Part shown: piece after piece, positions 6,218 through 43,264 of the stretch
Layout: the number at the start of each line of letters is the position of its first letter
Numbering within the stretch: position 1 is the stretch's first letter
Source of the DNA: an uncultured bacterium
GTDB taxonomy: Bacteria; Verrucomicrobiota; Kiritimatiellia; CAIQIC01; Lenti-01
Reading direction: 5' to 3'
DNA: 62,606 nt
Assembly (NCBI GenBank): GCA_902766695.1
Contig: CACXEY010000254.1
Span: 1-62,606, forward strand
Translations under genes and position numbers: made by a program
Notes under the pieces: generated by a model
Database searches by the model: none
What the model was told of the DNA's origin: nothing
The model's input: only the letters and a program-made list of their open reading frames with translations

Positions 6218-6227
6218 TTCCCATCCC

Positions 6228-16652: not shown

Positions 16653-16792
16653 CGGCGTCCGCCGCGTCTTCCGCCCCGCCCTGCAAAGCGCCCGGCGGCG
16701 CCGTCTGCGCGCCACCGGGCTCTCCGCCCCTCCCCGTCCTTTCCCCGGGCTCAGTCCCCTCCGCCACCGCCGGACGCCGGCTCTTCGACACG

Positions 16793-19700
16793 CTAACGGC
16801 CCATGTTGCGCGTCGGCGGCTGGTAGAAGTCTTCCGGGCTGTACGTCCAGTTCCACGTATCCCCCGCACCCTCTTCCTTTTTGCCCGAAATCAGCACGAT
16901 CATGTCGTTGGGGTGGATGGGCGTGTCCGTGGACGCGATTTCCGCGCGGTTCTTGTTGTAGCGCCACGTGCCGTTGGCATCGCAGTACATCGTCGTGTCG
17001 CCGCGGGGCTCCTTCGTCTCGGTATCGACCACGTACAGCTTGTCCGTCGTCGCATCCCACGGATTGCCCGCCTTCATCTTCCCGGACGTCGGCTCTCCGG
17101 TTTCCTTGTCGAATTCCACCAGCATCAGCTTGCTCGGGTGCACCGCCACCGGCAGGTTCAGCGACAGCAGGTTGTACACGCCCTTTCCGCGTACGACGGT
17201 CTGCTGGAACACCTGTTTCGACGCCGTACCGTCCCGTGCCCCCGGCTTGGCGGAGGACGTGGACGCGGTGGCGGCCACGGGCACCCCGTTCGTCGGCACC
17301 TGCATGATGGGATGCCACAGCATCGCCAGCACGGTCCGGTTCCTCCCGTATTGCGACTTCAGCTCCGTATGGTCCTTCCACCAGCCGTTGGTCTCCACCG
17401 TCCCGTTGTTCGTGGTGATGTTGGCCTTCGGCAGCAGGATTCCGAACGGCCTGGCGAAGAAGTTGGCGGGAAGGTCCTTATCCGTCACATCCGCACCCTT
17501 GTCATCGAACCACCGGAACTTCTTGTCCGCTTCCGTGGCCTTCTTGTCATAAGCGAAGAAGTAGGAACCGTTCGTCATCGTCGTCGTCCCGGACGAATAG
17601 AACTCGACTTTCGTCACGTCGTCGTCCGAAGCGGCCCCGTTCGTTGCCGCCGGCCACATCGACGGGTCCGTCCCGAAGACCCCGCGGAACGTGTTCGTCC
17701 ACGGCACGCCCTGCAGGCTCACGTAGTTGAACCCTTCGGACAGCACCACGTTGTTCATCGAGTACACTTCCATGCTCGCGAGCGGAATCTGCTTTTCGTC
17801 CGTCCCCGGCTTCGTGTCCTGCCACCGCCCCGTGTAGCTTGCGCGGTAGAAGCGCAGGCGTCCGGGCGTCGCGAGCCCCTCGTCCGCCTGGTAGTTCCAG
17901 TTCGTCTTGGACGTGCCGGAGTTGCCGGCGGTCGAGGCCATGTTCCACTGCTCCGTCCCCTTCTCGGTGAAGCTGGAGGCGTCGCGGTAGATCAGGTCGT
18001 ATTGCTTGTTCACGGCGTGCTTGAACTCGCCGGTCTTCGCGTCCTGCCCCGCCGCCAGCCAATGCAGCACCGCGGCCTTCGAAGGAGCACCCTCTCCGGG
18101 GACCGCCATCCCGATGTCCTCGAGATCGGCGGACTCGAGCATCCCGGAGATGGCCGCCGTCGTCCGTACCACGCCCGCGGTCACCGCGAACTTGATGGTG
18201 TTGTTCGTCGCCCAGCTCCACATTCCCGCGGGCCCTTCGTTGCCGGCCTTGTCCACGCCGACGATGATCACGATGTAGTGGTTGTCGAAGTCAAGGTCGT
18301 ACAGGCGGACGGACTGGTTCGTCGTCCCGACGTTCGCGGCGACCCGTCCCAGCGAATCGTACGCGGTGGACCGGCCGGTCCCCGTATCCTTCGGCGCCGT
18401 CGGATCCTGCACCGGGCTGTTCGTCATCACGAAGGCCCAGTTCGTGTAGTAGTTGGCGGCCGTCGGGTCGGACATGAACGTCTGGTACACCCAGCTCTTG
18501 GCCTCCACGTCGGGATTGTCGTCCGACGCGATCGCCGATTCCTCGTAGTTCGTGAAGTAGATCTTGTAGCTGTACCACGGCGACAGGGTTTCGTAGGCGC
18601 TGGCCTTGTACGTCGTCTCGATGTAGTTCGGGTCTGCCGGATCGTCCGGTCCCACTCCGTAAATCGGCCAGCTCAGGTCGAACTGCGTCGTCGGGTCGTC
18701 CGTGTTGTCCGGATTCGCCGTCAGGCGGCGCGGCGAACCGCCCGACACGTACCCGATCTTCGTCGGCTTCGTGATGTCGTATGCCAAAGGCACGTCGACC
18801 GGATCGCTGGCCAGACCGTCGCCCGGGCGGTCGTTGTCGCCGTCCACCGCGAACAGCTGGTACTTGCCGAAGCCCTGGTCCATCGTCACGGCCCCGAGAT
18901 TCGCCTTCAGCTTCTCGCCGTCGACGCTCGTCGTGATCTTCTTGCCGGCGTTCGTCGAAGTATGCGTGATGGTCGCATCCTCGCCCGCCAGGTGGTACCG
19001 CACCACGCCGGACTTCTTGGTGTCAAGTCCGGTCGGATCCTGGTCCGTCGCCGCCGTGAACCGCACGTTCACGTTGCCCAGGTTGTTCGTCCACGGCGCC
19101 GTCTCGCGCGTCATCTCCCCGACCGTCGTCACCGGAGTCCCGTTCACCTCGAGGCCCGTCGGCGGGTTCGGCCACAGGGTGTCGTTGTCGCGGACCGTGA
19201 TCTTGGGTCCGGCCAGCTGGGCATACTTCTGGTCCTCCTGGCGGTCGGCATCGGCGTCGTAGGCGTGGATGCGCAGCCAGAGGTCGCGGTAGTCCTGTCC
19301 GCCTGGCAGGAGGTTCCCGACGTCATCGTAGGTGAACTCGTCCCACGTCCACGTCGTGAACGAGACGGAGGCGGCCATCTTCGTCTGCCCGTCGGAGCTG
19401 CTCCAGCCGGTTCCGGGGAGCTGGTAGTGCGCCAGGGCGTTGGAGACCACGATTCCGTTGGTGGCGGCGGTTTCCCACGCCAGGTAGGTGTTGGTCAGCG
19501 TGATGGAGGAGGCGAGGGCGGAGGACGCGCCTTCCGTTGCCGCCGTCCCGCGCTTCACCCCCGTGTTGGAGCGGCCGCTCGTCCGGTCGGACGGGTCGAC
19601 CAGGTCGGCCGTGACGGCAAACTGCTTGCTCGCGGAGACCTCGCGCAGTTCTCCGTCGTAGATGGTGAACGCGCGGGTGGCGATGTCGTCGAGGGACCCG

Positions 19701-22700
19701 TTGTGGGCGCTCAGGCTGCCGCCCAGCGCGTAGTGCCCGTAATCCGCGGAGTCGAGGTCCTGCAGCGTCGCCCCGTCGGCCACGTTCGTCGCCACCAGGA
19801 TGCCCTTGAACTTGGAGGTGGACGCGTTCCGGTAGTGCGGCGCGCTCACGTCCTGGTCCATCACGCGGAAGTTGCCCACGTGGGCGATGCCGGTGGCGAG
19901 CGTGTCGCCCGCGCGGTCGTTGTCGCGGTCGGTCACGCCGGCGTACACCGCGTTCGTCACGATGGCGTCGGACGCGAATTCCGCCGCGTGGAGGGTGTAG
20001 AAGTCCAGCACCGCCTGCTCCCAGCCCACGGTGGCGCTCGGCACGTTGGCCTCGCCGAGGTCGCCCGTGTTCCCGGCATCGCGGGAATACCCGCCGGCGA
20101 GGGTGCCCGCCGCGTCGACGGTCCCGCCGGACAGGACGGTGGTCGTCCCGGCCTCGGCCCCGGTCGCCGGGTTCAGCTTGCGGAACTGGAGGTCGGTGAC
20201 GCGCCAGCCGCTGTAGTCATAGTAGTCGAGCGCGAAGCCGAGCTTGGAGTTTGCGCTGCTGCCGGCCGCCTCGGCGATCGAGTGGTCGCTCAGGGCCCAG
20301 ACGGAGGCCGCCCCGCTGTTGATGCGCTGCTTGGTGGGCAGGAGGGTGCCGTTCACCTTGACGCCGAACGGCCCCCCGAACTGGCTGCCCGTCTGCGGGG
20401 CCGCCTCGTCGTTGTCGTAGAGCCAGAACGCGTTGGTCACGGCCGCGGCGCGGGCGTCCGCGGTCCGGTCGTGGTCGTAGTCGTACACCCGGCTCACGAT
20501 CTTGTAGTGCTGGTTGTCCGGCTGCGTGCTGCCAGACTTCACCGAGAGCGGCATCCCCTTCGCCAGCGTCTCGGCGCTCAACCCCTGCGTCCGCACCTTC
20601 AGCTGGGCCGACACCATCTCGCCGTTCTTTCCGGTGCCCGGAGCCGAATTCACCATCGGCGCAAAGGCCGAGACGGAGATGACCACGCTGTCCACCTCCA
20701 GGCCCGTGCCGGCGGTGGTCTCCTCGGCAATCGATACCGCCACCTTGCCCACGCTCGAGTTCGCCACGGAAACCGGCCCCAGCGTGTATTCCCGCCAGGC
20801 CTTCGTCGCGCTGAACGTCTCCTCTTCGCCGATGGAGAGGGTGTCCCCGGCGGAGGTCTGGAAGTCCACGCCCAGCGTGAACCCGTTGGCGGCCCCGTCC
20901 GCCCCGGCGGCGAGCACCGAGCGGACCTTGGCCTGCACGATGACCGTCACGCCTTCGAGACCGCGTTCCGGCGCCGCCACGACGATGGTCTGCGAAGCGG
21001 AGGCCGCCTTCGAATCGCCACCGGGCAGCGAGAGCCAGTTCCGGCTTTCGGTCGTCCCCGCCACGATCTCCGCCCCGCTGGCCAGCGTCCAGCTGCCATC
21101 GTCGTCGGCGAACTGCGGATCCCCGCCGCTGGCCAGTTCCGCTTCCGCGTAGGCCAGTTCCACGAGGTTCGAGCTCCAGAACTCGGCCCCCTCCTTGGCC
21201 GACGCCGCGGGATAGTACACCGTGAAGTCCGGCACCCAGGCGTGGCAGTTGTCCGCCGAGTTCGAGGCGACCCACAGGCCGCTCCGCACCGTGTCGTACC
21301 CCGTCACCAGCCCGTCCTGGACCTCCAGCGTGTTCGTCCACGCCCCCTGGTTCAGGTCGTGGTCCGTCACTTCCTGGCCCTTCGGACCGGACAGGATTCC
21401 GTGCAGCTCCAGGTTGTTGATGCCCCAGTTGCCGTTGCCCGAGAACGTATCGTCCGCCTCGTCCTCGGCCACGCTCCCCGTCGCGCGCCAGCCGTACAGG
21501 CGGAACGTCTTCTTCTGCGTCCCCGTCGCCTCCACCGACTGCGAGAACACGATGCTCACCAGGTTCGTCGAAGCGAAGTACTGGCCTTCCCCGTTTTCTT
21601 CCTTGTCCACCACGACCGTCCCCAGTTCCGTCTCCACGGCGGTTCCCTTCACCGTCGTCACCTTCGGATTCCAGAGATTGAAGCCGGCATTGCCGTTGAC
21701 GCCGCTGTCGACGCCTTCATTGTTGGAAGCATACCAGCGAACCAGCATCTGCCCCGTGCGGGGGACCAGCGGGGAACCGGAAATCCTGATGTCGGAGAAA
21801 TTCTTGACATAGGCTTTCTGTTCGCCTGTTGCCGCGCTCTCCGACGGTTTGATGGTCGTCACATCCGTCCAACTCGCCCCGTTGTCCAAGCTGATTTGCA
21901 GTTTCAACGTCCGGTTGTCGGTGCGGTTGTACCGTGCGCCGGCATCATAGGAAATCGTCCCGGACGAAATCGAAGTCAGGGGAATCGAGACGGACTGCAC
22001 CGCAGCCGTGTGGACGCTGCTGGACCCCTTCAATGCCACCTGGTTCGTCGCCGTCAACTCGGCGCTGGTGGCGGCGCCGTTCTGCCAAACCGTCCATTTC
22101 TGGGAGGCACTCGGCGTATACACCGTCTCCGTCACCTCGCCCTGCACGGTCAGCGTGTAGCGGGTGGGGCCGTACGCGGTGACATAGCTCTTGAAGGTGA
22201 GGTTGTCGGCCAGCCAGTACGCCGTCTCGGTTCCGCCCAGCACCCACTCGAAGTACTTCGAGGAGGCCAGGTAGCTGGCGCCGTTCATTCCGCTTTCCAT
22301 GTAGGCCACGCCCGGATTCTCCGTCGCAGTGTAGTACAGCGTCGCCGAACCCGTCGTGCCGTTCGCGGCCTTGCTCTTCACGGCCACGGAGCCGTCCTGC
22401 ACGACCTGCGCGGTGCCCAGGGTCATCCCCTCGAAGGCCTGGAGCGCCCCGTAATGCGGGTTGCTCCCGCTTCCGATGGCATCTCCCTTCGAGAACGTGT
22501 CGAGCGCCAGCGTCCCGAACTTCACCATGTTCGTCCCGGTGCCCAGCAGGTTGGAGCGGGAGATTTCCGGCGCCGTCGCGTCGTCGTCGCTGAAGAGCAG
22601 GCGGCCGAAGGTGATTTCGGCGTCGGCCTGGTCGTTCGCGCGGTTGTCGTCGCTGTCCCAGGCGTGCAGCTGGACGACGTTCGTCACGCCGTCGCTGTGG

Positions 22701-34700: not shown

Positions 34701-37700
34701 TGGTTCGCCGTCGGGCTCCAGGCGCTCTCCTGCCCGTCCGTCCCCACCGCCTTCACCCGGTAGTAGTACTTCGTGCTCGCCGCCAACCCCGTGATGGCCT
34801 GGCTCGTCCCGCCCGTCACGTCGTAGCTCGTCACCCCCGACGAGAAGTCGGACGCCGTGCTCCGCTGCAACACGTATTTGCCCAAGTCCGTCGTGTTCCC
34901 CGCCGTCCAGCTCACCGTCATGCTGTTGCGCGTCACGCTGCTGAACGTGATGGCCGACGGCGCCGTGTACGCCGCCGTCGTCGCGTTCCCGGTGGACGAC
35001 CACGCGCTCTCCTGCGAATCCGTCCCCACCGCCTTCACCCGGAAGTAGTACTTCGTGCTCGCCGTCAGCCCCGTGAGGCTCTTCGTCAGCGTCCCCGCCG
35101 CCACGTTCGCGCTCGAAACCCCGCTCGCGAACGTGCTGCTCGTGCTCCACTGCAGCACGTAGTGGTCCAGGTCCGTCGTGTCCCCCGCCGTCCACGTTAG
35201 CGTCATCGCGTTCCGCAGGATTCCGCTCGCCGCGGGCGTCCCCGGCGCCGTGTACGCCGTCGCCGTCCCCGTCGCCTCCACCCACACGCTCTTCGCCGTC
35301 GGATTCGCCGCGCTCCCCTGCAGCGCCTGTACCCGGAAGTACACCGTCTCGCCCGCCGTCAGCCCCGTCACCGTGTAGCTCGTCCCCGATGTCGTGCCCT
35401 CGACCGTCTTGTAGCTCGTCCAGCTCTCGCTCGTCCCCGTCCCGCTGTAGTCCCCGCTCCCCTTGCTCAGCCGAGAAACCTTGACGTTCGTGAGCCTCGG
35501 GCTGATGAAATACGCCGTCCCGTACGCATGTGCGTTCGGCGCAACCAACTTGAACGCCACCCGGTCTCCTTCCCCCCAAGCCCCGGCAGGCACGTCGAAC
35601 TGGGCGGTTGTCGGGACGTCCGTCGACTCGGGCGCAGCCGCCCCAAGATAGCACCACGGCCCATCGTCGATCTGGTAGTAAACCTCCACCGTCCCGTCCG
35701 ACAGCTGTCCGTCCCCGATTCCCAGGTTGAACGACGCCACCGTGAACGACACCCGAATCCCCGTCATTCCCGCAATCGGGAAGCTTTTGCTTTCGAGGCC
35801 ATTCCCCGCAACGCCCGGAATGTGGCCCGAAGCATACCCCGGTGCGGTGCTCAACGTGGAGCTCGTGGTGGTCGCCGTCGTTCCGATGTACTTCCAGTCC
35901 TTCGTCCCGAAGCTGCCCAGCGCCAGCGCCGCCGTCCCCGCGCTCTTGTCAGCCCACGTCGACGGCGCCGCCGTCTTCGTCACCTGCACCCCGTACCCGA
36001 CAGCCCCGCTCTGGACGTCCGTCCACGTGAACGTCACCGCGTTGCGCACCGCGCTCGCGCTGACCGTGTTCGGCCTCACCCCGGCCTTCACCCCCAGCTC
36101 GTCGCTCCAGTCCCCGTCCGGAGCCTTCCGCACCCGCGCGTAATACGTGCTCCCGCTCGTCAGCCCCGTCACCTCCTTGGCATATCCCGGAATTCCGCTC
36201 GTCCCCGGCGTGTACGTGTACGAAATCTCGCTGAGCATCGCCAGATATTCGTTGTTGTCCGGCTTCGCCCAGCGCAACCGCACGCCCTGCTCCCCGCCCT
36301 TCAGGGAACTCGTGCTGTACGTGAACGTCGAAAATGCCGTCTGGCTCGCCGGCTCGTACGTGTCCAGTTTCGTCCAGCTCGCCCCGCCGTCGTAGCTCAC
36401 GCTGAAATCCAGATGCCGTTTGGCGTTGTTGCCGTCCCCGCCGGCGCGCATCTTCGTCGTCACCGACGTCACCTCCCCGTAAATGGGTTCCGTGTAGATG
36501 CACGAACCGACCGCGCTGAACCGGATTTCCCCGTCGTAAGTCGTGCTCTGGTTGTTCCTCGGGCAGGTGTTCGCGCTGCTCACCCCCAGCGTGTTGCTGA
36601 ACGTGTACACATGCCCCGCGCTCGTGATGTTCCGCGCCGCCGTCGGATACGAACTCTCGTTCGCCCAGACCGAATCGCTGTCGAACGTTTCCGTCACTGT
36701 CGACGAAGAGAACGAGCTGCTCGTCCCCGTCTGCACGTCATACCCCGCCGAGTCGCTCGACAGCTGGCTCCAGTTCAGCAGGTAACTCGTCCCGTCCACC
36801 CCCGTCGCCCACACGTTCGGCCCCTGGGACGCGATGGTCGTGATGCTCCGCGACGCCGGGCTCGTCGCCAGGTAGTTCGCCGTCGTCCCGTCACCGCCCT
36901 CCGCGTACGCGTACGCGTAAATGGTATAGGTCTGCTCCGGCGTCAGTCCCGTCACCTCCGCGCTCGTCCCCGCCCCCGCGAACGCCACCGTCCCCGCCCC
37001 GATTGCGTCACCCGCCGAATACGCCACCCCGTCCGTCGGCGCCGTCACGCTGCTCCCGCTCGGCACCACGATCAGCAACGTCTTCAGCGACGCCGTTTCC
37101 CCGCTAGCCGCCGCCCAGCTCCCCGCCGTCCACGTCATCGACGCCTTCCGGCTCCCCACCGTCCCCGCCGTCAACCCGCTCGCCTGCCCGCTCGGCTCCG
37201 TCGCCAGCGTCCAGAAATCGCTCGTCGCCGGAGTGGTAGCATACGAGGAGAATTTCAGGTTTGCGGAAGTAGCGGAATTCGGGGTGCGCCCGTACAACGC
37301 CAGATAATAATGCGTTGCAGGCGTTGCCCCCGACACCGCGATGTTCGCGCTCGCTATGGCCCGGTGGACGAGGGCCTTGGTCCCGCTGGAGGCCGGATAT
37401 TCCTCTGCGCTGCCCCATGCGATGCTGGCCTCCGTCTGCGCCGCCGGCCCCGACCCGTCCGTGGGCGCCGTCGGCGAACTCCCCGCCTTTGCCAGCAACA
37501 CGTTGTGGGTCGCCCCCGTCCCGCGCGAATATGCCACCGTGAACTGATTCACGCCCACGCCCGTCACGCTCGTGATGCTACCGCTCGTCGACGGCCGCAC
37601 CCCCATCACCTTCACCGTGCAAGTTGCCGTCTGCCCCAGATAATTGTCCGTCGCCGCCGCCGTCGCCGTGATTGTCACGTTCCCGTACCCCGTGCTGCCC

Positions 37701-40027
37701 CTGGTCACCTCGCCGCTGCTCGACCCTACCCCGGCCACCGCAGTCTTCCCGCTCGTGTACGTGATGGTCGGGCTTCCATGCCCTGCCGTCGCCGTCACCG
37801 TCACGCTGGAGTGGTCACCGTCCAGCGTCACCGACGAAGGCGAAAAGCTCAGCGTCTGCGCCGCCTTGTTCACCGTCAGCGTCGCCGTCACGTTGTCCGC
37901 CGCGTTCCACAGGCCGTTCCCCGCCTGGCTCGCCGTGATGGTCGCCGACCCCGCCCCGGCAATCGTCACCGTGCTTCCGCTCACCGTCGCCACGCTCGAA
38001 GGGCTGATGCTGTACGTCACCGTCCCCCCCTGCGCCGTCGCGCTCAGCGTGAACGTCGCGTCCCCGTACGTCTTCTCGACGTTACTCAGCCCCGTGATGG
38101 ACTGATTCCCCTTGTTCACCGTGATCGTCACCTCGTCCGTCCGCGCGGTGTAGCCCGTGCTCGCCGCCCGGGTCACGTCGAACACGAACTTCCCGGCCTT
38201 CGTCACCGTCAGCACGCCCGCGCTCGTCAAGGACCCCGTTCCCGTGGTCCCGGTCTTCAGCGTTGTCCCGAACGTGTACACCGCCGTCCCTGTCCCGTTC
38301 CCTCCGGTTCCCACCAGCGTGATCGTGCGCCCCGCGTACGTGTGCGTCAACTCCGTCACCGACACCGCCGTCGACTGCGGCACGTCCGCCGGCCTGTACG
38401 TCACCACGATGGACTTGCCGCTGATGGATTTCGTGAAACAGCTCTCCGACAGCCCCGAAAACGCCGTCGTGTCCAGCTTGACATGCCCCAAATCGGTAGA
38501 ATTGAAGCTCCCCTGCGTCGTCAGAATCGTCCATGTTGCCGTACTCCCCGAGTCGAACGATGACCCCGGCGTCAGCTTCAAATTAAAGTCCGAGCTGATT
38601 GCCCACCCACCGTCATTCATGGTGGTCAGGCTTTCGCTCACGTTCTGCCCCGTCGTTCCGACATCCACCTTGATGGTCGTCGACGCCTTGATGTTCATCA
38701 CCCCGACTTTGACCGCCCCATTCAAATCGATGTACGTCCCTGCCGTCGCGTTTGTAATGGCCAAGTTCGTCACAACCCCTGCCGACGTCAGCGCCAGCTT
38801 ACCGCCATTCAGGACCAGCCCCTGCCTGTCCGCCTTCTTCGTTAGGCTCGTCAGCGTCAACGTCCCCGCCCCTGTCTTGTACATTTCAGGTGCATCTACC
38901 TTGGGCTTCCAATTTGCAATCGTGATGTTCCCCGCCCCGCCGACCGTCGTCGACACCGTGTTCGAAAATGTCCCCGAAAGGTTCAGCGAGGATCCCGATG
39001 ACACCAGCAACGACCCTGCCGTGCTTTGGTTGTAAATGAGTCCACTCAAAGTGTTGTTCCCCGACGAACTCAAAATCGCACCCTTGCTGCTGGGCCCCAC
39101 ACCTTTGTACAGGATTTTCTCCGCCACGGTGATCCCCCCCGTCAGCTCCAGCTCGCCGCCCGATTGGATGGTCGTCATGCCCGCCCCGCTTCCCAGCGCG
39201 CTGTTGTTCGAAACCCGCAGGACGCCCCCTGTGACCGTGACTGCATTCGTGAACGTGTTCGCCCCGCTCAAAACGACCGTACCAGTTCTGGAACTCTTCG
39301 AAAGCTTCCCGACGTTGTTGGCGATCACACCGCTGATGGTAATCGTCTTTCCAGAGGCCGCATCCAAGGTCACATCTGCATTCAAATAGCAAGTATCGCT
39401 GAACGTCAAATTCCCGTTGTCTGCCCAAACATACTGGGAATTGTCGAATGAAACGGGTGCGGCGAACTCGTGTTTGACCGTCGCAAGGTTCTTTATGCCG
39501 TATTTGATGTTGATACCGCCATCGCTGCCCTTGTTGATGGTTCTGGCCGTCGATGCCCCTGATTCGAATTCAAGGTAATTAACTTTATACCATGCATCAA
39601 GCCACATGGTGGTCTGGGCATTGTTGTTGAAGTGGATGTCTCGGTAAGTGCTGCTGGCATCTTGATTGGCGGTAGTAGCATCAGGCCGCTTGTAATAAGT
39701 GCCGCCACCACCAGATCCAGTGCACCACGGATACGGATCCCAGTACCAATTCCCGGCACTCGGATCTGGCCTCCAATAAATTGTCTCTGCCTCTGCCTCC
39801 CTCGCGCCCCCCACCCACGCCCCGGCCACGACCGCCGCGACGGCGGCCCACCGCGCCACAAGTCCCATGCGTTCCCCGGGGGCTCTGCGTGTTTTCATTC
39901 CGTCCATTGTGCATTGTGCATTGTGCATTGTGCATTGCTCTTTGTGCATGTTCATCGTCTTTTCCTCCGTCGTTGCGGTCGTGGTGTGCATGTCGATTCG
40001 GCGAAAAACTTTGAAAAACCGGTTCAT
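16793..40027 (-). CDS. giant secreted multi-domain surface protein 1 (~7,744 aa): PATR beta-helix, Ig-like, many FN3, jelly-roll modules with Asp-boxes, LamG-like and cadherin-like Ca-motif modules, unknown C-terminal domain
   Basis: Uninterrupted minus-strand frame. Domain grammar is present throughout (see findings) and there is a signal peptide. The ATG at 40027 overlaps the DUF1016 stop (ATGA) and follows AGGAGG plus 7 nt. Alternative in-frame starts lie at 39955 (GGAGGAAAAGACG-ATG), 39907 and 39898. The ORF-track extension to 40981 is rejected. Confidence 0.9.
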   Translation of the reverse strand: MNRFFKVFRRIDMHTTTATTEEKTMNMHKEQCTMHNAQCTMDGMKTRRAPGERMGLVARWAAVAAVVAGAWVGGAREAEAETIYWRPDPSAGNWYWDPYPWCTGSGGGGTYYKRPDATTANQDASSTYRDIHFNNNAQTTMWLDAWYKVNYLEFESGASTARTINKGSDGGINIKYGIKNLATVKHEFAAPVSFDNSQYVWADNGNLTFSDTCYLNADVTLDAASGKTITISGVIANNVGKLSKSSRTGTVVLSGANTFTNAVTVTGGVLRVSNNSALGSGAGMTTIQSGGELELTGGITVAEKILYKGVGPSSKGAILSSSGNNTLSGLIYNQSTAGSLLVSSGSSLNLSGTFSNTVSTTVGGAGNITIANWKPKVDAPEMYKTGAGTLTLTSLTKKADRQGLVLNGGKLALTSAGVVTNLAITNATAGTYIDLNGAVKVGVMNIKASTTIKVDVGTTGQNVSESLTTMNDGGWAISSDFNLKLTPGSSFDSGSTATWTILTTQGSFNSTDLGHVKLDTTAFSGLSESCFTKSISGKSIVVTYRPADVPQSTAVSVTELTHTYAGRTITLVGTGGNGTGTAVYTFGTTLKTGTTGTGSLTSAGVLTVTKAGKFVFDVTRAASTGYTARTDEVTITVNKGNQSITGLSNVEKTYGDATFTLSATAQGGTVTYSISPSSVATVSGSTVTIAGAGSATITASQAGNGLWNAADNVTATLTVNKAAQTLSFSPSSVTLDGDHSSVTVTATAGHGSPTITYTSGKTAVAGVGSSSGEVTRGSTGYGNVTITATAAATDNYLGQTATCTVKVMGVRPSTSGSITSVTGVGVNQFTVAYSRGTGATHNVLLAKAGSSPTAPTDGSGPAAQTEASIAWGSAEEYPASSGTKALVHRAIASANIAVSGATPATHYYLALYGRTPNSATSANLKFSSYATTPATSDFWTLATEPSGQASGLTAGTVGSRKASMTWTAGSWAAASGETASLKTLLIVVPSGSSVTAPTDGVAYSAGDAIGAGTVAFAGAGTSAEVTGLTPEQTYTIYAYAYAEGGDGTTANYLATSPASRSITTIASQGPNVWATGVDGTSYLLNWSQLSSDSAGYDVQTGTSSSFSSSTVTETFDSDSVWANESSYPTAARNITSAGHVYTFSNTLGVSSANTCPRNNQSTTYDGEIRFSAVGSCIYTEPIYGEVTSVTTKMRAGGDGNNAKRHLDFSVSYDGGASWTKLDTYEPASQTAFSTFTYSTSSLKGGEQGVRLRWAKPDNNEYLAMLSEISYTYTPGTSGIPGYAKEVTGLTSGSTYYARVRKAPDGDWSDELGVKAGVRPNTVSASAVRNAVTFTWTDVQSGAVGYGVQVTKTAAPSTWADKSAGTAALALGSFGTKDWKYIGTTATTTSSTLSTAPGYASGHIPGVAGNGLESKSFPIAGMTGIRVSFTVASFNLGIGDGQLSDGTVEVYYQIDDGPWCYLGAAAPESTDVPTTAQFDVPAGAWGEGDRVAFKLVAPNAHAYGTAYFISPRLTNVKVSRLSKGSGDYSGTGTSESWTSYKTVEGTTSGTSYTVTGLTAGETVYFRVQALQGSAANPTAKSVWVEATGTATAYTAPGTPAASGILRNAMTLTWTAGDTTDLDHYVLQWSTSSTFASGVSSANVAAGTLTKSLTGLTASTKYYFRVKAVGTDSQESAWSSTGNATTAAYTAPSAITFSSVTRNSMTVSWTAGNTTDLGKYVLQRSTASDFSSGVTSYDVTGGTSQAITGLAASTKYYYRVKAVGTDGQESAWSPTANQTTSGFPGPATVAASGETRNGMTLAWDAVSGAASYNVEWTTCGLDSDTPVQEGDTCPSSTRAYDTHSATDWTYRKGYSSSAGYAAGAYPYWHSTFGHWLAGQYVNTTYKPGVETPALDLSDAASGYIEFAHRKANDGTNTLAKFSPVTLYYSLDGGAGWTNVSSCSEGTGSWVTKTIALPAVVLGRKNVRLQLRADKAAAYYDTSVSAYKPAGAGIKDIKVYKYRTGGDYECAATQSRNVPGTTTVLTGLAPETLYYFRVQAVGSGDGAGSTWTAGSSSTTPFNGPTGLAITEAGRYTLTAGWDAYAESGYTTQYEVQLTPCAKAGAEAATAGECPAQNLAFGTSATDWTYQREYSGSTASSYPKYENGVHKLWGQYSSTSIEPGILSPELDLAGYVSANVEFSHMYVNRSTMSEVALYYSLDEGANWTLVQETGTAAGATAATASSRSIPLPAEALAGGVKLLLRTKHATNYDLNPPNEDWRAQGASIANLKVTARGVGGGDYECGTATAIQGPQSSTSKIFSGLSAGGEYYIRVRTVLTPVGGGAAERSAWTEIPASTAVPQPPPEEIWGESIRQNHMTVAWSEAPGASAGTLYKYEVTKCGGATSTEVAAQETRTDGDLEEGVDDWTYTGGGTAPEATQQSTYGFLRETYPAWARLSENSIVLAGAGSPGIESAEFSTVGASAGTVTFLHGRWYNDGYLATAAVTLSYSIDGGDSWTDGPVQSATDISTAYATYSRSLALPSGALGHAHVKVRLEARAAADSVGTVTKPVGAALKKAKVTLTKQGGDYSGSGCVISSGTGLTADKLSAELEELEAGHAYYFHVAASDGVLVGGAPQYGAWTESMATTKSAPAAPASAWVVPESIGRHAMTVQWDAVADAETYVVKVYQGSSASGTLKQTIETASTSLTVTGLDAQRQYYYTIQSKADGESSSGTANCTGTTSASLAVTGFCVTNILDTSLSVKWDNVADTAYTLEVGPMTTDGATGALYETIECPATTLARSDKGNGWFYLGGNANYPKYYVKSSGTAAQKAEDQGHVLSYSSAGAPGIQSRWFSTFGAKSATIEFLHGRWFNDGKNSALQVFYSIDGGTTWTLAGDIASTANAVPGSAASGGEKTVTRFALPERALGQRTVAIRVQAPDAAAGGSYGYGAEIKDLRIKLEAYPQSASTFSGTVSGGIQNLSGLAIGRRYWFRLTATETYNSQTFTAEAVQTAATRQKTAGVVQSQGFEGAGENGALDTTAWGYDIKYNVVGTTTWRTESQRLSTDPEVKVVDGENPMYGDRALRMSGSAAAGTYGVVEFANKDFGAGHSENVVVTIPFAACDLAEGENLWVSYSTDGGTAWVAPEGLATLTKGGWTMGKIGRGGGDVMNQNWPYNRGTNSTTRPAGDAYSFELHGIRQLAVRVAFCGNSGGAKHYFYIDEVKLERLATPPTDVTASANTHGTVDLGWTPAGGQSVVVIRGQDMRNPPASLDLNSLPHGYEVVTNDTGGNYWVNTADPGVHATATDPGVTGGWKYFYYFYGALDNGDGTYTLSKECVQREVIVRGMVEAIASQGWDGWDVHPWGYKKGRTTNPGRAGDCGYWAYNQSGDTLPYEWAHFVEGSWEYDGQTGRNTSKGVVPSGVKDYAYYYGAGKTYGPAGRTDPDCTNQLGVSSYTNYFGTNCFRLSGGSGWTWYGPHTWTNNEGQVKTGTDIVINTNNPAIQFDTIDLSGYKNVEFSFHYAQTYSGGGNYMHVAISTNGNGADGTWMSYDNKNDGMWRQRTDTSRDYGLQLQTMTGDFSGGNVDFYDESRAPYGNPFVLQVPDAVTQLTVRLTFFDTTAVDQRKALIFVDEVRLTGEVAIEAPKPYISEIGKNQFMVHWEPVADADTYDVEVTEVCDESKIKLAQAFVVDGCPKDWEASSSGATFTKTASRLYASVSGTAHDHGLNLSGGSGALTSPEVGGTTNLQFYAKAYNASGSAKLIVEAKGDKDTEWEEIGSWTAAQLTGSWKGYTNSLPNRQWTQVRFRREGGSGTSDSIYVDDIEFHGEGVYTVAGVKSFPGVSATNQVVTGLASGKRYLAHVRAVGAPAGVVVRSAWGETADWTAGDFAVAADGFEMTRSTWGNPGSGIAVIAVNDGKAFSDVPAPTGTPAVGSAVGQGVVIARTTSAQSGAGFEHVVPYGSRTDAVDQKYVVYWKHGSYWEGRLETNVVLNTYVCAAADAFAVTNGTSMPATGDQAAFNTGKGWAGPWHVETVPWSGAWAGQETRNDSRPYGLLETNQLWGTGGNMLVLYPTNENKKVEIKRTLATPLSKSSEWWGMFTMKIYYSGPNKWAGIQLLDESGASKVSIGKLWNAKDSSNANEGKVIGFQQGSTTKASNYVLNDGQTCVVVFKWDGSKMWLKTFYRGSDTEPQWARTATFPGFDVSETLSMDDIHAIRLVAENGSGLLYPVWFDEIRIGSSWEELVGKEPVPPFPVATAHAVMDGKEMIRLDWVKPAAGTDTAPDPDVERPAATRVYVLEKNVNSPFTADQLAWKTHGVGESSEIGDAVVTLLYNGSGTELEHVVLPGTSHRYAFISYASGVYAESALEVSTDSNTGGPLTMDKYGETEYVNPFSYTNSFEVSGSGTHTEWRGGNGFTNTAGNTVHFWATGDGQNGTTANAATWTPVKPADAPAKMGTEIPNYKVSAGNVMKVSPSANTSASLGRTLAQDWGGEAGKTFYIAYRMAYTYDGVNKWAGLKLIDNSGSHRGVFVGKPGTSDSSKQNLLSIDPGGGLGIGFGNYSLNAGAGNAYVVVAKVQWTAADKVNVYAMAKYADGETEFPEEEPTTGWNAQWINMTFSGVHMIELLAGGTGSDVTPGDTYFDEIRFGGSWDDLLGPKVPTDVWMAGLSEDVFLGDYVVNNITSKPQGPGQSAKHLLSGAAEPSGAAWAAGVDAAWVRNITTETPPQTEWIATNQFKTTGTLYAYGSATGDGETVYSWQHGDDRYKRNTYTVAALPAPVLHATNDASYRVPLGWDRGSSGGRTFEEVMVVKYSSAYAANTISANNLKPEDGKAYYAGDVIYHSNPENYMTVIYRGTAQYYTNRPCSSHSYYAAYTVNNSYYSPRSAVADATPSNTGGDIDIDGDPTDWVGTPAEPWNSSIFSEGELIWTDKRGEERTDNPERCPSADITEFRVKADSTNVYFLLQLNGGTATMPTNAHVAVGLDTRLSTESTDLNWLADESYTFLGGAYYTNSPAFHYPKIQMAVHWVGGDRNEWQVELYDTDSASWHAPLWWKASSALDGSGNPVASATPCVEWVVPRNELGLDGVTGDAAVTGRFSVATFLNSGSWNNEAVGVVLIASNSCAAVDALAIAPYGSNDKDYALGAWDEGLKNNNVDFWMDARFGATALLSDTAPSTPANPEPANDGTGAGNPVLQWSNSTDAEGFVTGWLLEVADTPNFGGDGGHTENGPVLYRVNIEMTPELAAAIAATPSRKISFKPMTNCKEFWWRVRARDNAGQLSAATVQHYTVTGKQDNDGPVATLKYVGSQVGKFLGDSEYRAEVERNGEAYSILDSEFGGSSAEFGFVIEWYDINGVYATNHMRGWVNDYDGVDDCDIGPSKWPAGKVEGDYTWNILATNGDGTVFGRVSPNWDLMMVNTNRTSANPPSPLNITVHTSGGEKTLTWEHHGGTGEPELLIPDAMGEYQPAQGWVIQWGYDDAFLGVGTESGTTFSGQTLRAYDGGTEISCNGVQYLTNYVSGVFGLPEYDPEVDLYLTLSAEDCCTSDQWGEQPWDPWPPSTERDHQGSYRGLSCNEVNVLTGGWCADGPNPARNVTVNQLIKINVKDNDVVPPIASTERWAATAVDEDGTEFKPSMLVSTNNIAKSSANTTWATITGKLPRREGVQRDTMYQLTDAMMVGGTRPLSFFFNVFDDYIESGTQRGATQTTTPASTGHTLTNSAFVVKTWDPALNEGAGAWVASTENTGNFVADGSYISDMVHDGSGWHEAAGTKGTGPSTVLRWDFATSDINSLFGMTDILSYIGTHSDGVTNVVQLHAWDSDDNRANDQADAEITFGRLLFSDDDATAPEISRSNLLGTGTNMVKFGTLALDTFSKGDAIGSGSNPHYGALQAFEGMTLGTAQVVQDGSVAVKSKAANGTTGSATLYYTATENPGVAYMESGMNGASYLASSKYFEWVLGGTETAYWLADNLTFKSYVTAYGPTRYTLTVQGEVTETVYTPSASQKWTVWQNGAATSAELTATNQVALKGSSSVHTAAVQSVSIPLTSISSGTISYDAGARYNRTDNRTLKLQISLDNGASWTDVTTIKPSESAATGEQKAYVKNFSDIRISGSPLVPRTGQMLVRWYASNNEGVDSGVNGNAGFNLWNPKVTTVKGTAVETELGTVVVDKEENGEGQYFASTNLVSIVFSQSVEATGTQKKTFRLYGWRATGSVAEDEADDTFSGNGNWGINNLELHGILSGPKGQEVTDHDLNQGAWTNTLEVQDGLVTGYDTVRSGLWVASNSADNCHAWVPDFTVYYPAASAKEGAEFWSSNLVELAYAEAELASGGDPQFADDDGSWTLASGAEIVAGTTESRNWLSLPGGDSKAASASQTIVVAAPERGLEGVTVIVQAKVRSVLAAGADGAANGFTLGVDFQTSAGDTLSIGEEETFSATKAWREYTLGPVSVANSSVGKVAVSIAEETTAGTGLEVDSVVISVSAFAPMVNSAPGTGKNGEMVSAQLKVRTQGLSAETLAKGMPLSVKSGSTQPDNQHYKIVSRVYDYDHDRTADARAAAVTNAFWLYDNDEAAPQTGSQFGGPFGVKVNGTLLPTKQRINSGAASVWALSDHSIAEAAGSSANSKLGFALDYYDYSGWRVTDLQFRKLNPATGAEAGTTTVLSGGTVDAAGTLAGGYSRDAGNTGDLGEANVPSATVGWEQAVLDFYTLHAAEFASDAIVTNAVYAGVTDRDNDRAGDTLATGIAHVGNFRVMDQDVSAPHYRNASTSKFKGILVATNVADGATLQDLDSADYGHYALGGSLSAHNGSLDDIATRAFTIYDGELREVSASKQFAVTADLVDPSDRTSGRSNTGVKRGTAATEGASSALASSITLTNTYLAWETAATNGIVVSNALAHYQLPGTGWSSSDGQTKMAASVSFTTWTWDEFTYDDVGNLLPGGQDYRDLWLRIHAYDADADRQEDQKYAQLAGPKITVRDNDTLWPNPPTGLEVNGTPVTTVGEMTRETAPWTNNLGNVNVRFTAATDQDPTGLDTKKSGVVRYHLAGEDATITHTSTNAGKKITTSVDGEKLKANLGAVTMDQGFGKYQLFAVDGDNDRPGDGLASDPVDVPLAYDITKPTKIGYVSGGSPRRLTANPDNTDDPTTQFDLSWPIYGVGPDDPADPNYIETTYKASAYETLSPWYSYKIYFTNYEESAIASDDNPDVEAKSWVYQTFMSDPTAANYYTNWAFVMTNSPVQDPTAPKDTGTGRSTAYDSLGRVAANVGTTNQSVRLYDLDFDNHYIVIIVGVDKAGNEGPAGMWSWATNNTIKFAVTAGVVRTTAAISGMLESADLEDIGMAVPGEGAPSKAAVLHWLAAGQDAKTGEFKHAVNKQYDLIYRDASSFTEKGTEQWNMASTAGNSGTSKTNWNYQADEGLATPGRLRFYRASYTGRWQDTKPGTDEKQIPLASMEVYSMNNVVLSEGFNYVSLQGVPWTNTFRGVFGTDPSMWPAATNGAASDDDVTKVEFYSSGTTTMTNGSYFFAYDKKATEADKKFRWFDDKGADVTDKDLPANFFARPFGILLPKANITTNNGTVETNGWWKDHTELKSQYGRNRTVLAMLWHPIMQVPTNGVPVAATASTSSAKPGARDGTASKQVFQQTVVRGKGVYNLLSLNLPVAVHPSKLMLVEFDKETGEPTSGKMKAGNPWDATTDKLYVVDTETKEPRGDTTMYCDANGTWRYNKNRAEIASTDTPIHPNDMIVLISGKKEEGAGDTWNWTYSPEDFYQPPTRNMGR
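38600..39450 (-). other. autotransporter-associated beta-strand (PATR-type) beta-helix region of giant protein 1 (approximate limits)
   Basis: TGTVVLSGANTFTNAVTVTGGVLRVSNNSALGSGAGMTTIQSGGELELTGG...KTGAGTLTLTS...LVLNGGKLALTS. The phrase VTVTGGVLRVSNNSALGS maps to 39181-39240. Confidence 0.7.
39788..39898 (-). other. predicted Sec signal peptide of giant protein 1
   Basis: MKTRRAPGERMGLVARWAAVAAVVAGAWVGGAREAEA / ETIYW: a basic n-region, an Ala/Val h-region and an AEA cleavage-like site. Confidence 0.7.
39905..39939 (-). repeat. perfect tandem heptamer (plus strand cattgtg x4 plus cattgct; coding strand CAATGCA) inside the 5' leader of giant gene 1
   Basis: Read directly. It encodes QCTMHNAQCTM. 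Each unit carries an ATG, so ATGs occur in all three frames. Confidence 0.9.
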
Positions 40028-41118
40028 GGGCAAACCTCCTGGGCGGGGTTGTTCAGTGTCTGGCACGGATGCTGTGCCTCGAAAATCGCCTTTTGGGCCT
40101 CGATTTCGGCCCGGAGCGCCTCCGCGCTGGGAAGGACCAGCACGTATTTGGAGGCGAAAAGCTGCTCGCTCCCCTTGAGCACCGAATAGCGCGCCACGTC
40201 GGAATCCGTGTCCGCGCACAGGAGGATGCCGAGCGTCGGGTTGTCCCCCTCCCCGCGGCGCTTCTCGTCGAACATCCGCACGTACATGTCCATCTGCCCC
40301 ACGTCCTGGTGCGTGATCTTCGACGTCTTCAAGTCCACCAGCACGAAGCACTTCAGCAGGTAGTTGTAGAACACCAGGTCGATGAAATAGTCTTCCTTCT
40401 CCGTGTGGATCCGGTGCTGGCGCGCCACGAAAGCGTAGCCTTTCCCCATCTCCATCAGGAACTTGCCCAGATTGTCCAGGATGCGCGTCTCCAAATCGCT
40501 TTCCGTGAAGTCCGTCCGCGGCGCCAGCCCCAGGAACTCCGCCACCACCGGGTTCTTCACGAACTCCAGCCGGTCCTGCAACGGCGCCGTCAGCCGCCGC
40601 ATCTCCGCCTTCACCGCCCCCTTCGACTGCGACAGCAGCGTCCGCTCGTAGTACTGCGACGAAATGTTCCGCTGCAGCGTCCTGACGCTCCACGTTTCCG
40701 ACGCGGCCTCGTCCAGATACCACTTCCGCGCCTCGGCGTTCTCCACCTGCAGAAGCTTCAGGTAATGCGACCATCCCAGAAGCCCGCCGGATTTTGGCGA
40801 CAGTGTCTCCAAAATTGGGAAAGTGCGGTAAAACTGCACATATTTGTATAGGCTCCCGAAGTCGAACCCAGCTCCGTATTCTTCGGTCAATTGCGCCGCC
40901 AGCTCCTTGACAGCCTGCCGCCCGTATTCCGCCCTCTCCCCCTTCAACTCCTCTTCGGCGATGCGCTTCCCGAGCAGCCAATTCCGCTGCACCAGCGCCG
41001 CGTTGACGGCCCGGTACGCGCCCGTGCGCGCCGACTCGATGATTTCCCGCGCGTCCGCGAGCAACCCCTTGCCGGCGGCGGCCGCCGCCCGGACATCCTT
41101 CTGGAGCGTCCCGCCCAC
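40024..41118 (-). CDS. DUF1016 / YhcG-like PDDEXK-family nuclease
   Basis: N-terminal YhcG-type region (NAALVQRNWLLGKRI, GWSHYLKLL). PDDEXK core IDLVFYNYLLKCFVLVDLKTSKITHQDVGQMDMYV. GTG start overlapping the upstream TAG (TAGTG); its stop overlaps the next ATG (ATGA). Confidence 0.85.
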   Translation of the reverse strand: MGGTLQKDVRAAAAAGKGLLADAREIIESARTGAYRAVNAALVQRNWLLGKRIAEEELKGERAEYGRQAVKELAAQLTEEYGAGFDFGSLYKYVQFYRTFPILETLSPKSGGLLGWSHYLKLLQVENAEARKWYLDEAASETWSVRTLQRNISSQYYERTLLSQSKGAVKAEMRRLTAPLQDRLEFVKNPVVAEFLGLAPRTDFTESDLETRILDNLGKFLMEMGKGYAFVARQHRIHTEKEDYFIDLVFYNYLLKCFVLVDLKTSKITHQDVGQMDMYVRMFDEKRRGEGDNPTLGILLCADTDSDVARYSVLKGSEQLFASKYVLVLPSAEALRAEIEAQKAIFEAQHPCQTLNNPAQEVCP

Positions 41119-41231
41119 TATGCGACCTCCGCCTCCCTCCGGGCCTCCGCGTCTCCGCGCGGAGCGCTCTCCGCGTCTCTGCCTATCCGCGCCTCCGCGT
41201 GCCCGAAAACCTTCTCAAAGAATGCGTTCAT
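41118..41231 (-). CDS. 37-codon leader ORF (MNAFFEKVFGHAEARIGRDAESAPRGDAEARREAEVA)
   Basis: Not in the ORF track. Its ATG lies 3 nt after the A1 stop, in the same conserved AAGGAGAATGAGAG-ATG context as the giant gene 2 start. Its first residues resemble the giant-gene N-termini (MNRFFKVF, MSAFSNNF). Confidence 0.35.
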   Translation of the reverse strand: MNAFFEKVFGHAEARIGRDAESAPRGDAEARREAEVA

Positions 41232-41253: not shown

Positions 41254-41447
41254 CGGCGGGCCGAATCCGTCTCCCCGTTTGGCAGTTTGGTGGGGTGGTG
41301 GTTTGACGGCACCCCTGCCGCCTGCCGGGCCAACCGCTCCGCACGGTGCCGCCGCAGATACTCGCACACGCCGTGGAGGGTTCCCCCGCCCTTTTCCCAG
41401 AGGCGACGCCGCGGAGCCATGATTTCCTCGTAGATTTCCCTATTCAT
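41235..41447 (-). CDS. small PIN-associated protein A1 (70 aa), unknown family; putative antitoxin/partner
   Basis: MNREIYEEIMAPRRRLWEKGGGTLHGVCEYL.... It is a paralog of A2 and A3 (MN..DPV..E....R.K.WE..GGT..G). Its start overlaps the PIN-1 stop by 8 nt (ATGAATAG). Confidence 0.5.
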   Translation of the reverse strand: MNREIYEEIMAPRRRLWEKGGGTLHGVCEYLRRHRAERLARQAAGVPSNHHPTKLPNGETDSARRGAEGE

Positions 41448-43024: not shown

Positions 43025-43264
43025 GCCGCCCCCTCCCCTCCGCGCCTCCGCGTCTCCGCGCGAGCCCTCTCCGCCCCGCCCGATCCCCTCCGGGCAAAGT
43101 CCATGCGGACAAGACCGCGCGGCCCTGTCGAGGCAAGCAGTTTTGGAATAGGATTGGGCATGGACTCTCTCCATGTAAATTTACCCCCTCCCCCATCCCC
43201 GCGCAACCCCGGCCCGCCCCCCACGCGGTAAAACGCTCTACCGGAAGGCGCCCTGCGGGCGCAG

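Follow-up and report, generated by a model that had tools for sequence, protein, structure and literature searches.

The analysed window is the whole of contig CACXEY010000254.1 (assembly GCA_902766695.1; 62,606 nt, G+C content ~68%), which originates from an uncultured Kiritimatiellae bacterium, probably of a gut or rumen. Its minus strand encodes two giant proteins, giant protein 1 (P1) and its paralogue giant protein 2 (P2), the first of which is the subject of this study. The P1 gene was found to be intact, and sequence comparison places its product in a sizeable, lineage-restricted family of giant proteins with a C-terminal domain (CTD) as the signature. The features of the locus are listed in Table 1.

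Table 1. Features of the P1 locus (positions in nt of the window; residues refer to P1; AF2, AlphaFold2; CDS, coding sequence; GC3, G+C content at third codon positions; HMM, hidden Markov model; HSP, high-scoring segment pair; Ig, immunoglobulin; SD, Shine-Dalgarno sequence; TRF, Tandem Repeats Finder)
Feature	Residues	Position	Strand	Basis or remarks
P1, CDS	7,744 aa + stop	16793-40027	-	Open frame, SD and ATG, ATGA overlap, public gene call, GC3 0.91, four assemblies
Leader before signal peptide	1-43	39899-40027	-	M-x-x-[LF]-F-x-x-[IF]-F-like conserved decapeptide, then low-complexity spacer
Heptanucleotide tandem repeat CACAATG x6.4 in leader, in frame as QCTMHNAQCTM		39905-39949	-	TRF and sequence
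Sec-type signal peptide, MKTRRAPGERMGLVARWAAVAAVVAGAWVGGAREAEA / E	44-79	39791-39898	-	Basic n-region, hydrophobic stretch, A-x-A site
Trp-rich segment and PATR-type beta-helix head	~80-520	38468-39790	-	PATR/TIGR02601 near cut-off, homologues with PF12951
Ig-like (Big_2-like) region	~540-1023	36959-38410	-	aBig_2 E = 0.002 at residues 741-808, VATVSGSTVTIAGAGSATITA-type pattern; weak
FN3 modules alternating with Asp-box jelly-rolls	1024-3032	30932-36958	-	Pfam fn3, Reelin_subrepeat-B, HMM, alignment A6, internal repeats
Further jelly-rolls (three)	3033-3815	28583-30931	-	Two end in [FY][VI]DEV[RK]L; one MAM/choice-of-anchor-J-like (3640-3815)
Part of P1 collinear with P2	3661-7744 (P2 983-5054)	16796-29047	-	35% identity, one BLASTP HSP, 2,061 bits
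Conserved core block	~3868-5840	22508-28426	-	Common to a subset of the family; collinear BLAST to 10+ genome loci
Two FN3 + ~300-aa units ending FDEIR[IF]G		27323-28540, 26108-27322	-	In core block
Most conserved module, contains DGDPTDW		24533-25627	-	Alignment A4, 59% mean column identity
Modules ending in D.D.[DN]R..D, then ~20 residues on D[DN]D...P	~5791-7090	18758-22657	-	Motif scan, alignment A8
Family-wide constant region: FN3-like module with insert, then CTD	7030-7744	16796-18940	-	35-46% identity in 28/28 genome loci
CTD	Last ~430-450	16796-18145	-	Database searches, AF2, Foldseek
Terminal motif FYQPPTRNMGR-COOH		16796-16828	-	Family motif statistics
P2, paralogue of P1	5,054 aa	43527-58691	-	Leader of like kind, own N-terminal part, core and CTD in common, GC3 0.92
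Toxin-antitoxin/nuclease-type genes		40024-41118 (YhcG/DUF1016), 41440-42285, 58695-59189, 59236-59898	-	

Gene and modular architecture of giant protein 1

The minus-strand frame of P1 is free of stop codons from 16793 to 40981. Since the 954 nt of this frame upstream of the ATG at 40027 overlap, in another frame, the gene of a YhcG/DUF1016 PDDEXK nuclease, the coding start was assigned to that ATG. It is the best backed start, with AGGAGG lying 7 nt upstream, and was also chosen by the public gene call on an independent contig. It overlaps the stop codon of the YhcG/DUF1016 gene as ATGA, which implies co-transcription of the two genes and possibly translational coupling. The G+C contents of the three codon positions (0.56, 0.53, and 0.91) follow the pattern expected of a coding frame, and the product has a size of ~830 kDa with 10.1% Asp+Glu against 6.9% Lys+Arg. 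The plus-strand open reading frame (ORF) antisense to P1 (5,994 codons, 16442-34426) is a shadow and no gene, because its G+C content at first codon positions (0.93) mirrors the GC3 of P1. Four independent assemblies (contigs of 62,606, 62,579, 76,757, and 76,746 nt) yielded the 7,744-aa product, and their copies vary by 1-2 residues or in the choice of start codon alone. P1 is a genuine intact gene: the original prediction, made from the letters of the window, had described an uninterrupted minus-strand frame of ~7,700 residues, and interruptions on resequencing were looked for and found in none of the four assemblies. The peptide strings quoted there all lie within ~50 nt of the sites given for them, namely, TITVNKGNQSITGL at 38128, TATLTVNKAAQTLSF at 37888, YIDEVKL at 30442, FVDEVRL at 29212, FDEIRIG at 27409, FDEIRFG at 26182, and DGDPTDW at 25402.

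The leader of P1 opens with MNRFFKVFRR and continues into a spacer encoded by the CACAATG repeat. Similar leaders are present in the homologous giants P0163, P0017, P0061, P0066, P0063, and P0064. The ESPR (extended signal peptide) was considered as an identity for the leader and rejected: none of 10 leaders matched the Pfam model at E ≤ 10, and the resemblance is limited to the pattern MNRFFKVF. The sole N-terminal hydrophobic stretch of P1 (residues 54-72, Kyte-Doolittle (KD) value 1.69) belongs to the predicted signal peptide, and equivalent signal peptides with A-x-A sites after the h-region were found in P2 and the homologues, in agreement with the leader and signal peptide initially read from the sequence. 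The PATR head described behind them scored just under the cut-offs in P1 itself (PATR, 22.5 bits with a cut-off of 27; TIGR02601, 19.8 bits with a cut-off of 19.85), and PF12951 was detected in 96/96 homologues of the head. The PEP-CTERM domain PF07589 occurred in 7/96 of these homologues and the autotransporter barrel PF03797 in 0/96.

The Ig-like modules proposed next may be retained tentatively on the aBig_2 match, and the alternating array of FN3 modules and jelly-rolls was clearly recovered. Pfam fn3 (PF00041) reached 146 bits (cut-off 25), with PDB matches to titin and fibronectin, and Reelin_subrepeat-B (PF21471) reached 66 bits over the whole N-terminal half (cut-off 27) and 20-35 bits per tile. 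The HMM built in this study located about 10 FN3 copies at residues 1024, 1285, 1552, 1650, 1744, 2021, 2297, 2587, 2686, and, weakly, 2958. The jelly-rolls between them measure 170-196 aa in alignment A6 instead of the ~250 aa first suggested, and a strict Asp-box (S-x-D-x-G-x-T-W) is present in 3/6 aligned jelly-rolls (residues 1211, 2487, and 2863) and not in each. A 285-nt tandem repeat (34718-35262) lies within the array. The further jelly-rolls with [FY][VI]DEV[RK]L ends were found as predicted; the module at 3640-3815 matched MAM at 26.4 bits, equal to the cut-off, and choice_anch_J at 25.5 bits (cut-off 30). Because hhalign related this MAM-like module to A6 at 96.9% and the 3033-3205 module to the MAM-like module at 94.5%, the further jelly-rolls and the Asp-box modules form one superfamily. 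Apart from module size, the earlier grammar of the N-terminal half is essentially right. All domains detected in P1 are of binding or stalk type (fn3, Reelin-B/Asp-box, MAM/choice-of-anchor J, PATR, and aBig_2), and no catalytic domain was detected with Pfam/NCBIfam.

In the C-terminal half, residues ~3,830-7,744 gave no Pfam/NCBIfam match at E ≤ 0.1, whether searched as halves or as 860-aa tiles. Family alignments were built from P1, P2, and related loci for the FDEIRFG-ending unit (A5), the DGDPTDW module (A4), and the junction module (A8). The PDB sequences yielded no match at E ≤ 1 to the raw C-terminal half or to the profiles A2, A4, A5, and A8. Pfam searches with every A4 and A5 member gave weak FN3-type matches alone, located at the start of A4, and those with 11 homologues of the whole C-terminal half gave fn3, Ig_Rha78A_N, isolated MBG_2, PATR, and CBM53. 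No LamG, CBM9, or cadherin match was obtained with Pfam/NCBIfam for P1 or 10-15 homologues: LamG was absent from P1 and 16 A5 members at E ≤ 1, CBM9 (PF06452) from P1 and 11 A4 members, both also from the PDB sequence matches, and the Pfam cadherin family from P1 and 11 A3 homologues. According to hhalign, the A5 unit relates to the MAM-like and Asp-box jelly-rolls at <3%, and the CTD, A4, and A5 are unrelated to one another and to the jelly-rolls.

The labels LamG-like, CBM9-like, and cadherin-like given to this half by the original prediction therefore remain guesses from short motifs, although the motifs themselves are present: both FN3 units end as described, DGDPTDW lies in its module, and the Asp-rich motif recurs. 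This junction motif was found at residues 5791, 6516, 6700, 6924, and 7062, with its second part at 5814, 6538, and 6947; P1 and P2 contain it five times each, and it is conserved in A8. The modules that bear it span 140-700 aa, unlike the ~100-aa cadherin repeats, and the cadherin likeness is real as a junction motif alone. The only internal transmembrane (TM)-like stretch of P1 (AVGVVLIASNSCAAVDALAIAP, residues 5086-5107, 24707-24772, KD 1.89) is most likely a buried strand and no membrane anchor, since the segment of module A4 that contains it is conserved and strand-like (consensus ...AVD..SI.P).

The constant C-terminal domain and its family

The CTD had been described as a C-terminal domain of no known family, and it gave no Pfam, NCBIfam, or PDB-sequence match here, including NCBIfam searches with 30 family members. 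A word-index search of 5.8e9 proteins with the last 450 aa of P1 returned 10 relatives (E = 1e-114 to 1e-46), none of them annotated and one from a Kiritimatiellae metagenome-assembled genome (MAG). An exhaustive search of 1.84e9 representatives with a CTD profile yielded at least 246 clusters (50% identity), of which ~70 carry the full CTD; nearly all of these are 3,000-7,945 aa long with the CTD at the very end. The scan of one genome per species identified 28 CTD loci in ~18 MAGs, each of which bears the label Kiritimatiellia, Verrucomicrobia, or Lentisphaerae. Genomes often hold 2-3 loci, the CTD nearly always closes a frame of >3,000 aa, and the genome loci nearest to P1 belong to a sheep-rumen Kiritimatiellae MAG. 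Members are named publicly as 'hypothetical protein' or 'autotransporter-associated beta strand repeat-containing protein', and no paper on Kiritimatiellia giant proteins was found in the literature.

The part common to all members corresponds to P1 residues 7030-7744, the last 700 aa being shared by 28/28 loci and the ~70 representatives, with non-homologous N-terminal parts; a second block (~3868-5840) is shared by a subset. Directly upstream of the CTD, residues 7030-7300 hold an FN3-like module (…VGVDKAGNEGP…) and a D.D.DR motif with 38-46% identity to all loci. P1 has the full-length CTD alignment, the near-terminal [FY]Y..P[TD]R.MG, and the upstream FN3-like module with D.D.DR that mark the family. 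Since this C-terminal region is constant across a lineage-specific family, the CTD is taken as the key part of P1 and not a leftover. The stalks of 12 distant CTD-bearing members contain DUF11 (x11), SdrD_B, LTD, HYDIN/ASH Ig, Big_9, Cadherin, Calx-beta, SprB, and CBM96 and no catalytic domains; true Cadherin domains were found in the stalk of one distant member, and SprB repeats are likewise carried by one member.

The nearest relative of P1 is P0015/P0163 (~7,700 aa; P0163, 7,703 aa). Homologues collinear over ~6,000 aa share 72% (P0015) and 45% (P0013) identity with P1. The identity to P0163 is strongly mosaic, with 20-40% in residues 1-1600, 44-78% in 1600-3800, and 80-100% in 4000-7200, reaching 98-100% in the windows 4001-4200 and 6801-7200, and therefore suggests recent recombination or gene conversion among the giant genes. 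The CTDs of the compared relatives are 37-69% identical to one another.

A predicted structure of the CTD was obtained with AF2 from an alignment of 30 sequences (pLDDT 82.9, pTM 0.83), which was needed because 8 sequences gave a pLDDT of 49. The all-beta model is built of strands 3-8 residues long; it contains one disordered loop, and its C-terminal tail is well packed. The Foldseek search gave no match at E ≤ 1e-3 in PDB or BFVD, and the top TM-score was 0.14. Because of the short strands of the all-beta model and the lack of a Foldseek match, the modelled CTD is neither a membrane barrel nor a known anchor fold. Together with the confident model, the stand-alone protein P0003 indicates that the CTD is an autonomous unit. 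P0003 (467 aa, L001 10001-11404) consists of a signal peptide, a short linker, and the CTD alone, and its gene adjoins that of a 1,424-aa Exo_endo_phos/LTD/TSP_3 protein on a 90-kb metagenome contig.

Of 143 family sequences that bear the motif [FY]Y..P[TD]R.M, 107 have it ending ≤3 residues from the C-terminus, and in 94 the distance is exactly 2 residues. The ending ...Y..PTR.M[ST]P is uniform in a more distant subfamily. The extended members L026-L028, L030-L031, and P0028 carry extra residues after PTRWM and end in ...EYNGTG....

None of the known anchors or secretion signals was recovered in P1. The autotransporter barrel PF03797 had no Pfam match at E ≤ 0.5 on the last tile and no outer membrane protein match in Foldseek. 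The two-partner secretion (TPS) domain PF05860 was not matched in tile 1, and there is no adjacent TpsB and no Omp85/POTRA gene in the window. RTX repeats are represented by a single GG.G.D match at residue 4603, and genes of a type I secretion system (T1SS) are absent from the window. The sole LP.[TSA]G match, corresponding to LPXTG, lies 875 residues from the end. PEP-CTERM gave no NCBIfam/Pfam match; the last 60 aa are free of PEP, and P1 ends without a hydrophobic segment or TM helix. The tails of the type IX secretion system (T9SS), TIGR04183/TIGR04131, had no NCBIfam match in P1 or 30 CTD family members. The absence of a barrel, LPXTG, PEP-CTERM, and terminal TM helix had been noted originally and extends to T9SS tails and RTX; a characterised adhesin or S-layer family with a known anchor was looked for and not found. 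The conclusion that the export and retention of P1 are open still stands.

Paralogue, neighbouring genes, and tandem repeats

The long stretch that P1 shares with P2, previously put at ~3,880 residues, is real and measures 4,084 aa of P1 in the BLAST alignment. Housekeeping genes occupy the low-coordinate side of P1 and encode ComEC, prepilin peptidase, Obg, a pyridoxal phosphate-dependent enzyme, a solute-binding protein, a TPR protein, HisG, GrpE, and a HemN-like radical-SAM enzyme; the ObgE sequence belongs to a 90% cluster that bears the name 'Kiritimatiellae bacterium'. Between and upstream of both giant genes, small toxin-antitoxin or nuclease-type genes (YhcG, DUF2442, Unstab_antitox, and PIN) were found, with a PAS-PP2C phosphatase gene upstream of them. 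The Rfam search gave no match in the window or in the P1 leader.

The leader repeats of both giant genes sit between an ATG with a strong SD and the signal peptide. The P2 leader is likewise built of in-frame 7-/8-nt tandem repeats (58549-58576 and 58628-58670, minus strand; TTCAACGA x5.4, read as FNDSTIQRFNDPTI), and the leader peptide strings of P1 and P2 also head homologous giants from other samples. The copy number is identical in four assemblies and similar in orthologues, and the exact P1 heptamer array was found in >120 unrelated metagenome contigs (G+C content 0.32-0.70; 3.7-22.7 copies). With a constant copy number and so wide an occurrence, phase variation via the heptamer was rejected. 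Because these unrelated contigs carry it, the array is not specific to giant genes; it is a widespread element.

Further 7-8-nt intergenic tandem arrays were detected at 573-602, 6138-6164, 6189-6216, 41136-41199, 43037-43061, 43266-43293, and 43460-43482. CTTGTCA arrays lie directly downstream of the stop codons of two minus-strand genes, one being that of P2, mutually inverted arrays (GACTTGC/CAAGTCG) lie between the ComEC and prepilin peptidase genes, and CCTCCGCG forms tandem arrays of x8 and x3 in the window. These intergenic arrays look like a genome-wide habit and are perhaps terminator-like or repetitive extragenic palindromic (REP)-like.

Proposed role and comparison with known systems

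The reading favoured here, to which about an even chance is given, is that P1 is exported through Sec and forms a fibre at the cell surface, acting as an adhesin or in glycan binding, whose N-terminal binding end varies and whose C-terminal base is constant. It draws on a domain content confined to binding and stalk modules, on the signal peptide and acidic composition, on the Asp-rich junctions, and on genes that are paralogous, mosaic, and present in several copies. Synthesised with a leader at its N-terminus and a Sec signal peptide that can be cleaved off, P1 would cross the inner membrane unfolded. The mature protein would be an acidic, all-beta, non-enzymatic chain of ~830 kDa, made up of some 50-60 beta-sandwich, jelly-roll, and beta-helix modules, with the Asp-rich motifs at several junctions probably binding Ca2+. 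The N-terminal third to half (PATR head, Ig-like modules, and FN3 with Asp-box jelly-rolls) would be the end that varies and binds the target. The constant end would comprise the C-terminal ~700-1,250 residues, closing in the 430-residue CTD locked to the C-terminus, and would most likely mediate a shared step: passage to the envelope, attachment to it, or both. The N-terminal head is placed distally and the C-terminal base near the cell because the N-termini are interchangeable and most divergent, the C-termini are constant, and relatives of the PATR head are PEP-CTERM-anchored; by analogy, these short relatives with PEP-CTERM suggest a C-terminal anchor and an exposed N-terminal head.

In this arrangement, the CTD is the best candidate for the anchoring or export module, and the fixed distance of its motif from the carboxyl end would fit recognition by a machine or a structural plug. 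The more specific proposal, regarded as tentative and on balance doubtful, is that the CTD with FY..PTR.MG is the recognition or attachment module of an undescribed Kiritimatiellia-specific pathway by which Sec-exported proteins of 3,000-8,000 residues would be moved across, or fixed to, the outer membrane. Such a pathway would be, as part of the same doubtful proposal, a functional analogue of T9SS CTD or PEP-CTERM/exosortase sorting with an unrelated fold.

Several observations weigh against the favoured reading. The CTD of P1 is 52-56% identical to that of P0163, below the core, and a pure docking signal would predict otherwise. No partner gene is linked to P1, with Omp85/TpsB, POTRA, T1SS, type II secretion system secretin, and sortase-like genes all absent from the window, and the 28 loci have no conserved downstream neighbour of the CTD gene, synteny being confined to close relatives. 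In seven sequences, 25-370 residues follow the motif (~130 or ~370 in the five from genome loci). The signal peptide and cleavage site of P1 were judged by eye, and the fold search of the CTD covered PDB and BFVD only. Finally, the conservation of a terminal domain would fit a conserved ligand-binding tip at the distal end equally well.

Among the alternatives, P1 may be exported but released or only loosely associated, as an S-layer-like or extracellular matrix protein or as a free scaffold that binds glycans. Its CTD would then serve in oligomerisation or ligand binding and not as an anchor; this is considered unlikely. It would agree with the lack of an anchor of known type, with the stand-alone P0003, in which the CTD can work without a stalk, and with the signal-peptide-only giants reported as a class in other lineages related to the Planctomycetota-Verrucomicrobiota-Chlamydiota (PVC) group (bioRxiv 10.64898/2026.06.07.730766). 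However, a constant C-terminus beneath variable, non-homologous stalks better suits a shared cellular interaction than an external ligand, and an 830-kDa protein crossing the outer membrane would still require a route.

The reversed orientation is judged quite improbable; in it, the N-terminus would lie near the cell, kept there by a signal-anchor that is not cleaved or by a PATR head held at the outer membrane, and the CTD would be the distal adhesive tip. RTX adhesins are built so, with ligand-binding modules near the C-terminus, close relatives have diverged more rapidly in the CTD than in the core, as a selected tip might, and the top Foldseek matches, weak and non-significant, were phage tail-tip and receptor-binding proteins. 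The conserved A-x-A sites after the h-region in P1, P2, and homologues argue against it, as do the N-terminal 1,600-3,800 residues, which differ most between paralogues and orthologues, and the C-terminal PEP-CTERM anchors of the head relatives.

Little probability is given to type V-like export, in which the leader and PATR head would be recognized by an unlinked Omp85-family/TAM translocator, as in two-partner secretion, and the chain would leave N-terminus first. The TpsA proteins are likewise large and have a beta-helix at the N-terminus as well as a Sec signal, and the P1 leader opens with the ESPR-like pattern MNRFFKVF. In addition, the definition of PATR repeats goes back to autotransporter passengers (Doyle et al. 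2015 Mol Microbiol 97:315, as cited in PMC8111173). On the other hand, neither a TPS domain, an autotransporter barrel, nor an ESPR was matched in P1, no TpsB-like gene is present in the window, PF03797 is missing from all 96 head homologues, and the conserved CTD would be left unexplained. An assembly chimera or a decaying pseudogene held open by high G+C content, in favour of which it may be said that such DNA yields long spurious ORFs like the 5,994-aa one on the opposite strand, has next to no standing and is effectively refuted already by the high GC3 of the P1 frame and its antisense mirror, the four assemblies concordant within 2 residues, the in-frame Pfam domains, and the collinear homologues of 6,000-7,700 aa in other samples.

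Kiritimatiellia specialise in the degradation of glycans in guts, rumens, and sediments, and to our knowledge their envelope biology is almost unknown. Because P1 and P2 occupy 38 kb of the 62.6-kb contig and genomes of the family usually hold 2-3 copies, the cells would appear to invest heavily in giant fibres. The foldable 430-residue CTD with its fixed motif makes the family a handle on the display of near-megadalton proteins by diderm PVC bacteria without known secretion or anchoring signals. If the CTD proves to be a sorting or anchoring signal, it would represent a new surface-display route and a marker for its cargo; if not, it would still be a new domain family with a corrected map for proteins named 'hypothetical' or 'autotransporter-associated repeat'.

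Each of the known systems resembles P1 in part. The PATR surface proteins of PVC bacteria (PF12951/TIGR02601, many with PEP-CTERM) share the Sec signal, the Trp-rich start, and the PATR beta-helix head, but they measure ~300-770 aa in the match list, some with PF07589 ends, whereas P1 has 7,744 aa, no PEP-CTERM, and a 430-aa CTD. The T9SS cargo SprB is a 6,497-aa gliding adhesin of Flavobacterium johnsoniae, and T9SS cargo in general resembles P1 in the Sec signal, the huge modular beta-rich stalk, the diversity of cargo, and the conserved beta-rich domain at the extreme C-terminus. In contrast to the ~430-aa CTD of P1, which has no NCBIfam match, T9SS CTDs are of ~70-100 aa (TIGR04183/TIGR04131) and confined to Bacteroidota and relatives; we know of no T9SS in Kiritimatiellia. 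The RTX/T1SS adhesins (LapA, MpIBP, SiiE, and FrhA) are similar in size, in the acidic beta-sandwich stalk with Asp-rich, putatively Ca2+-binding junction motifs, and in modules of carbohydrate-binding type. They have no Sec signal and carry a C-terminal GGxGxD with a T1SS signal, an N-terminal retention module, and linked ABC/MFP genes, unlike P1 with its signal peptide, single GG.G.D, and no such neighbours. Two-partner-secretion exoproteins (FHA and HMW1/2) are also very large, their signal peptide follows an N-terminal extension, a beta-helix lies at the N-terminus, and HMW genes carry 7-bp repeats at the 5' end; P1 differs from them in lacking a TPS domain and an adjacent TpsB and in a stalk of modular beta-sandwiches instead of one long beta-helix. 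The giants of Omnitrophota and other PVC-related lineages are lineage-specific secreted proteins of several thousand residues with PATR/TSP3/concanavalin-like repeats and an unknown export route, mostly TM-anchored and many with enzymes or dockerins (bioRxiv 10.1101/2023.11.21.568195; 10.64898/2026.06.07.730766; PMC12057145), whereas P1 is non-enzymatic, carries only a signal peptide, and is a member of a family set by a different conserved C-terminal region. P1 lacks the defining traits of each; the systems that by analogy would be functionally closest to P1 are the T9SS cargo represented by SprB, the PEP-CTERM PATR proteins, and the RTX adhesins with their Ca-stiffened stalk.

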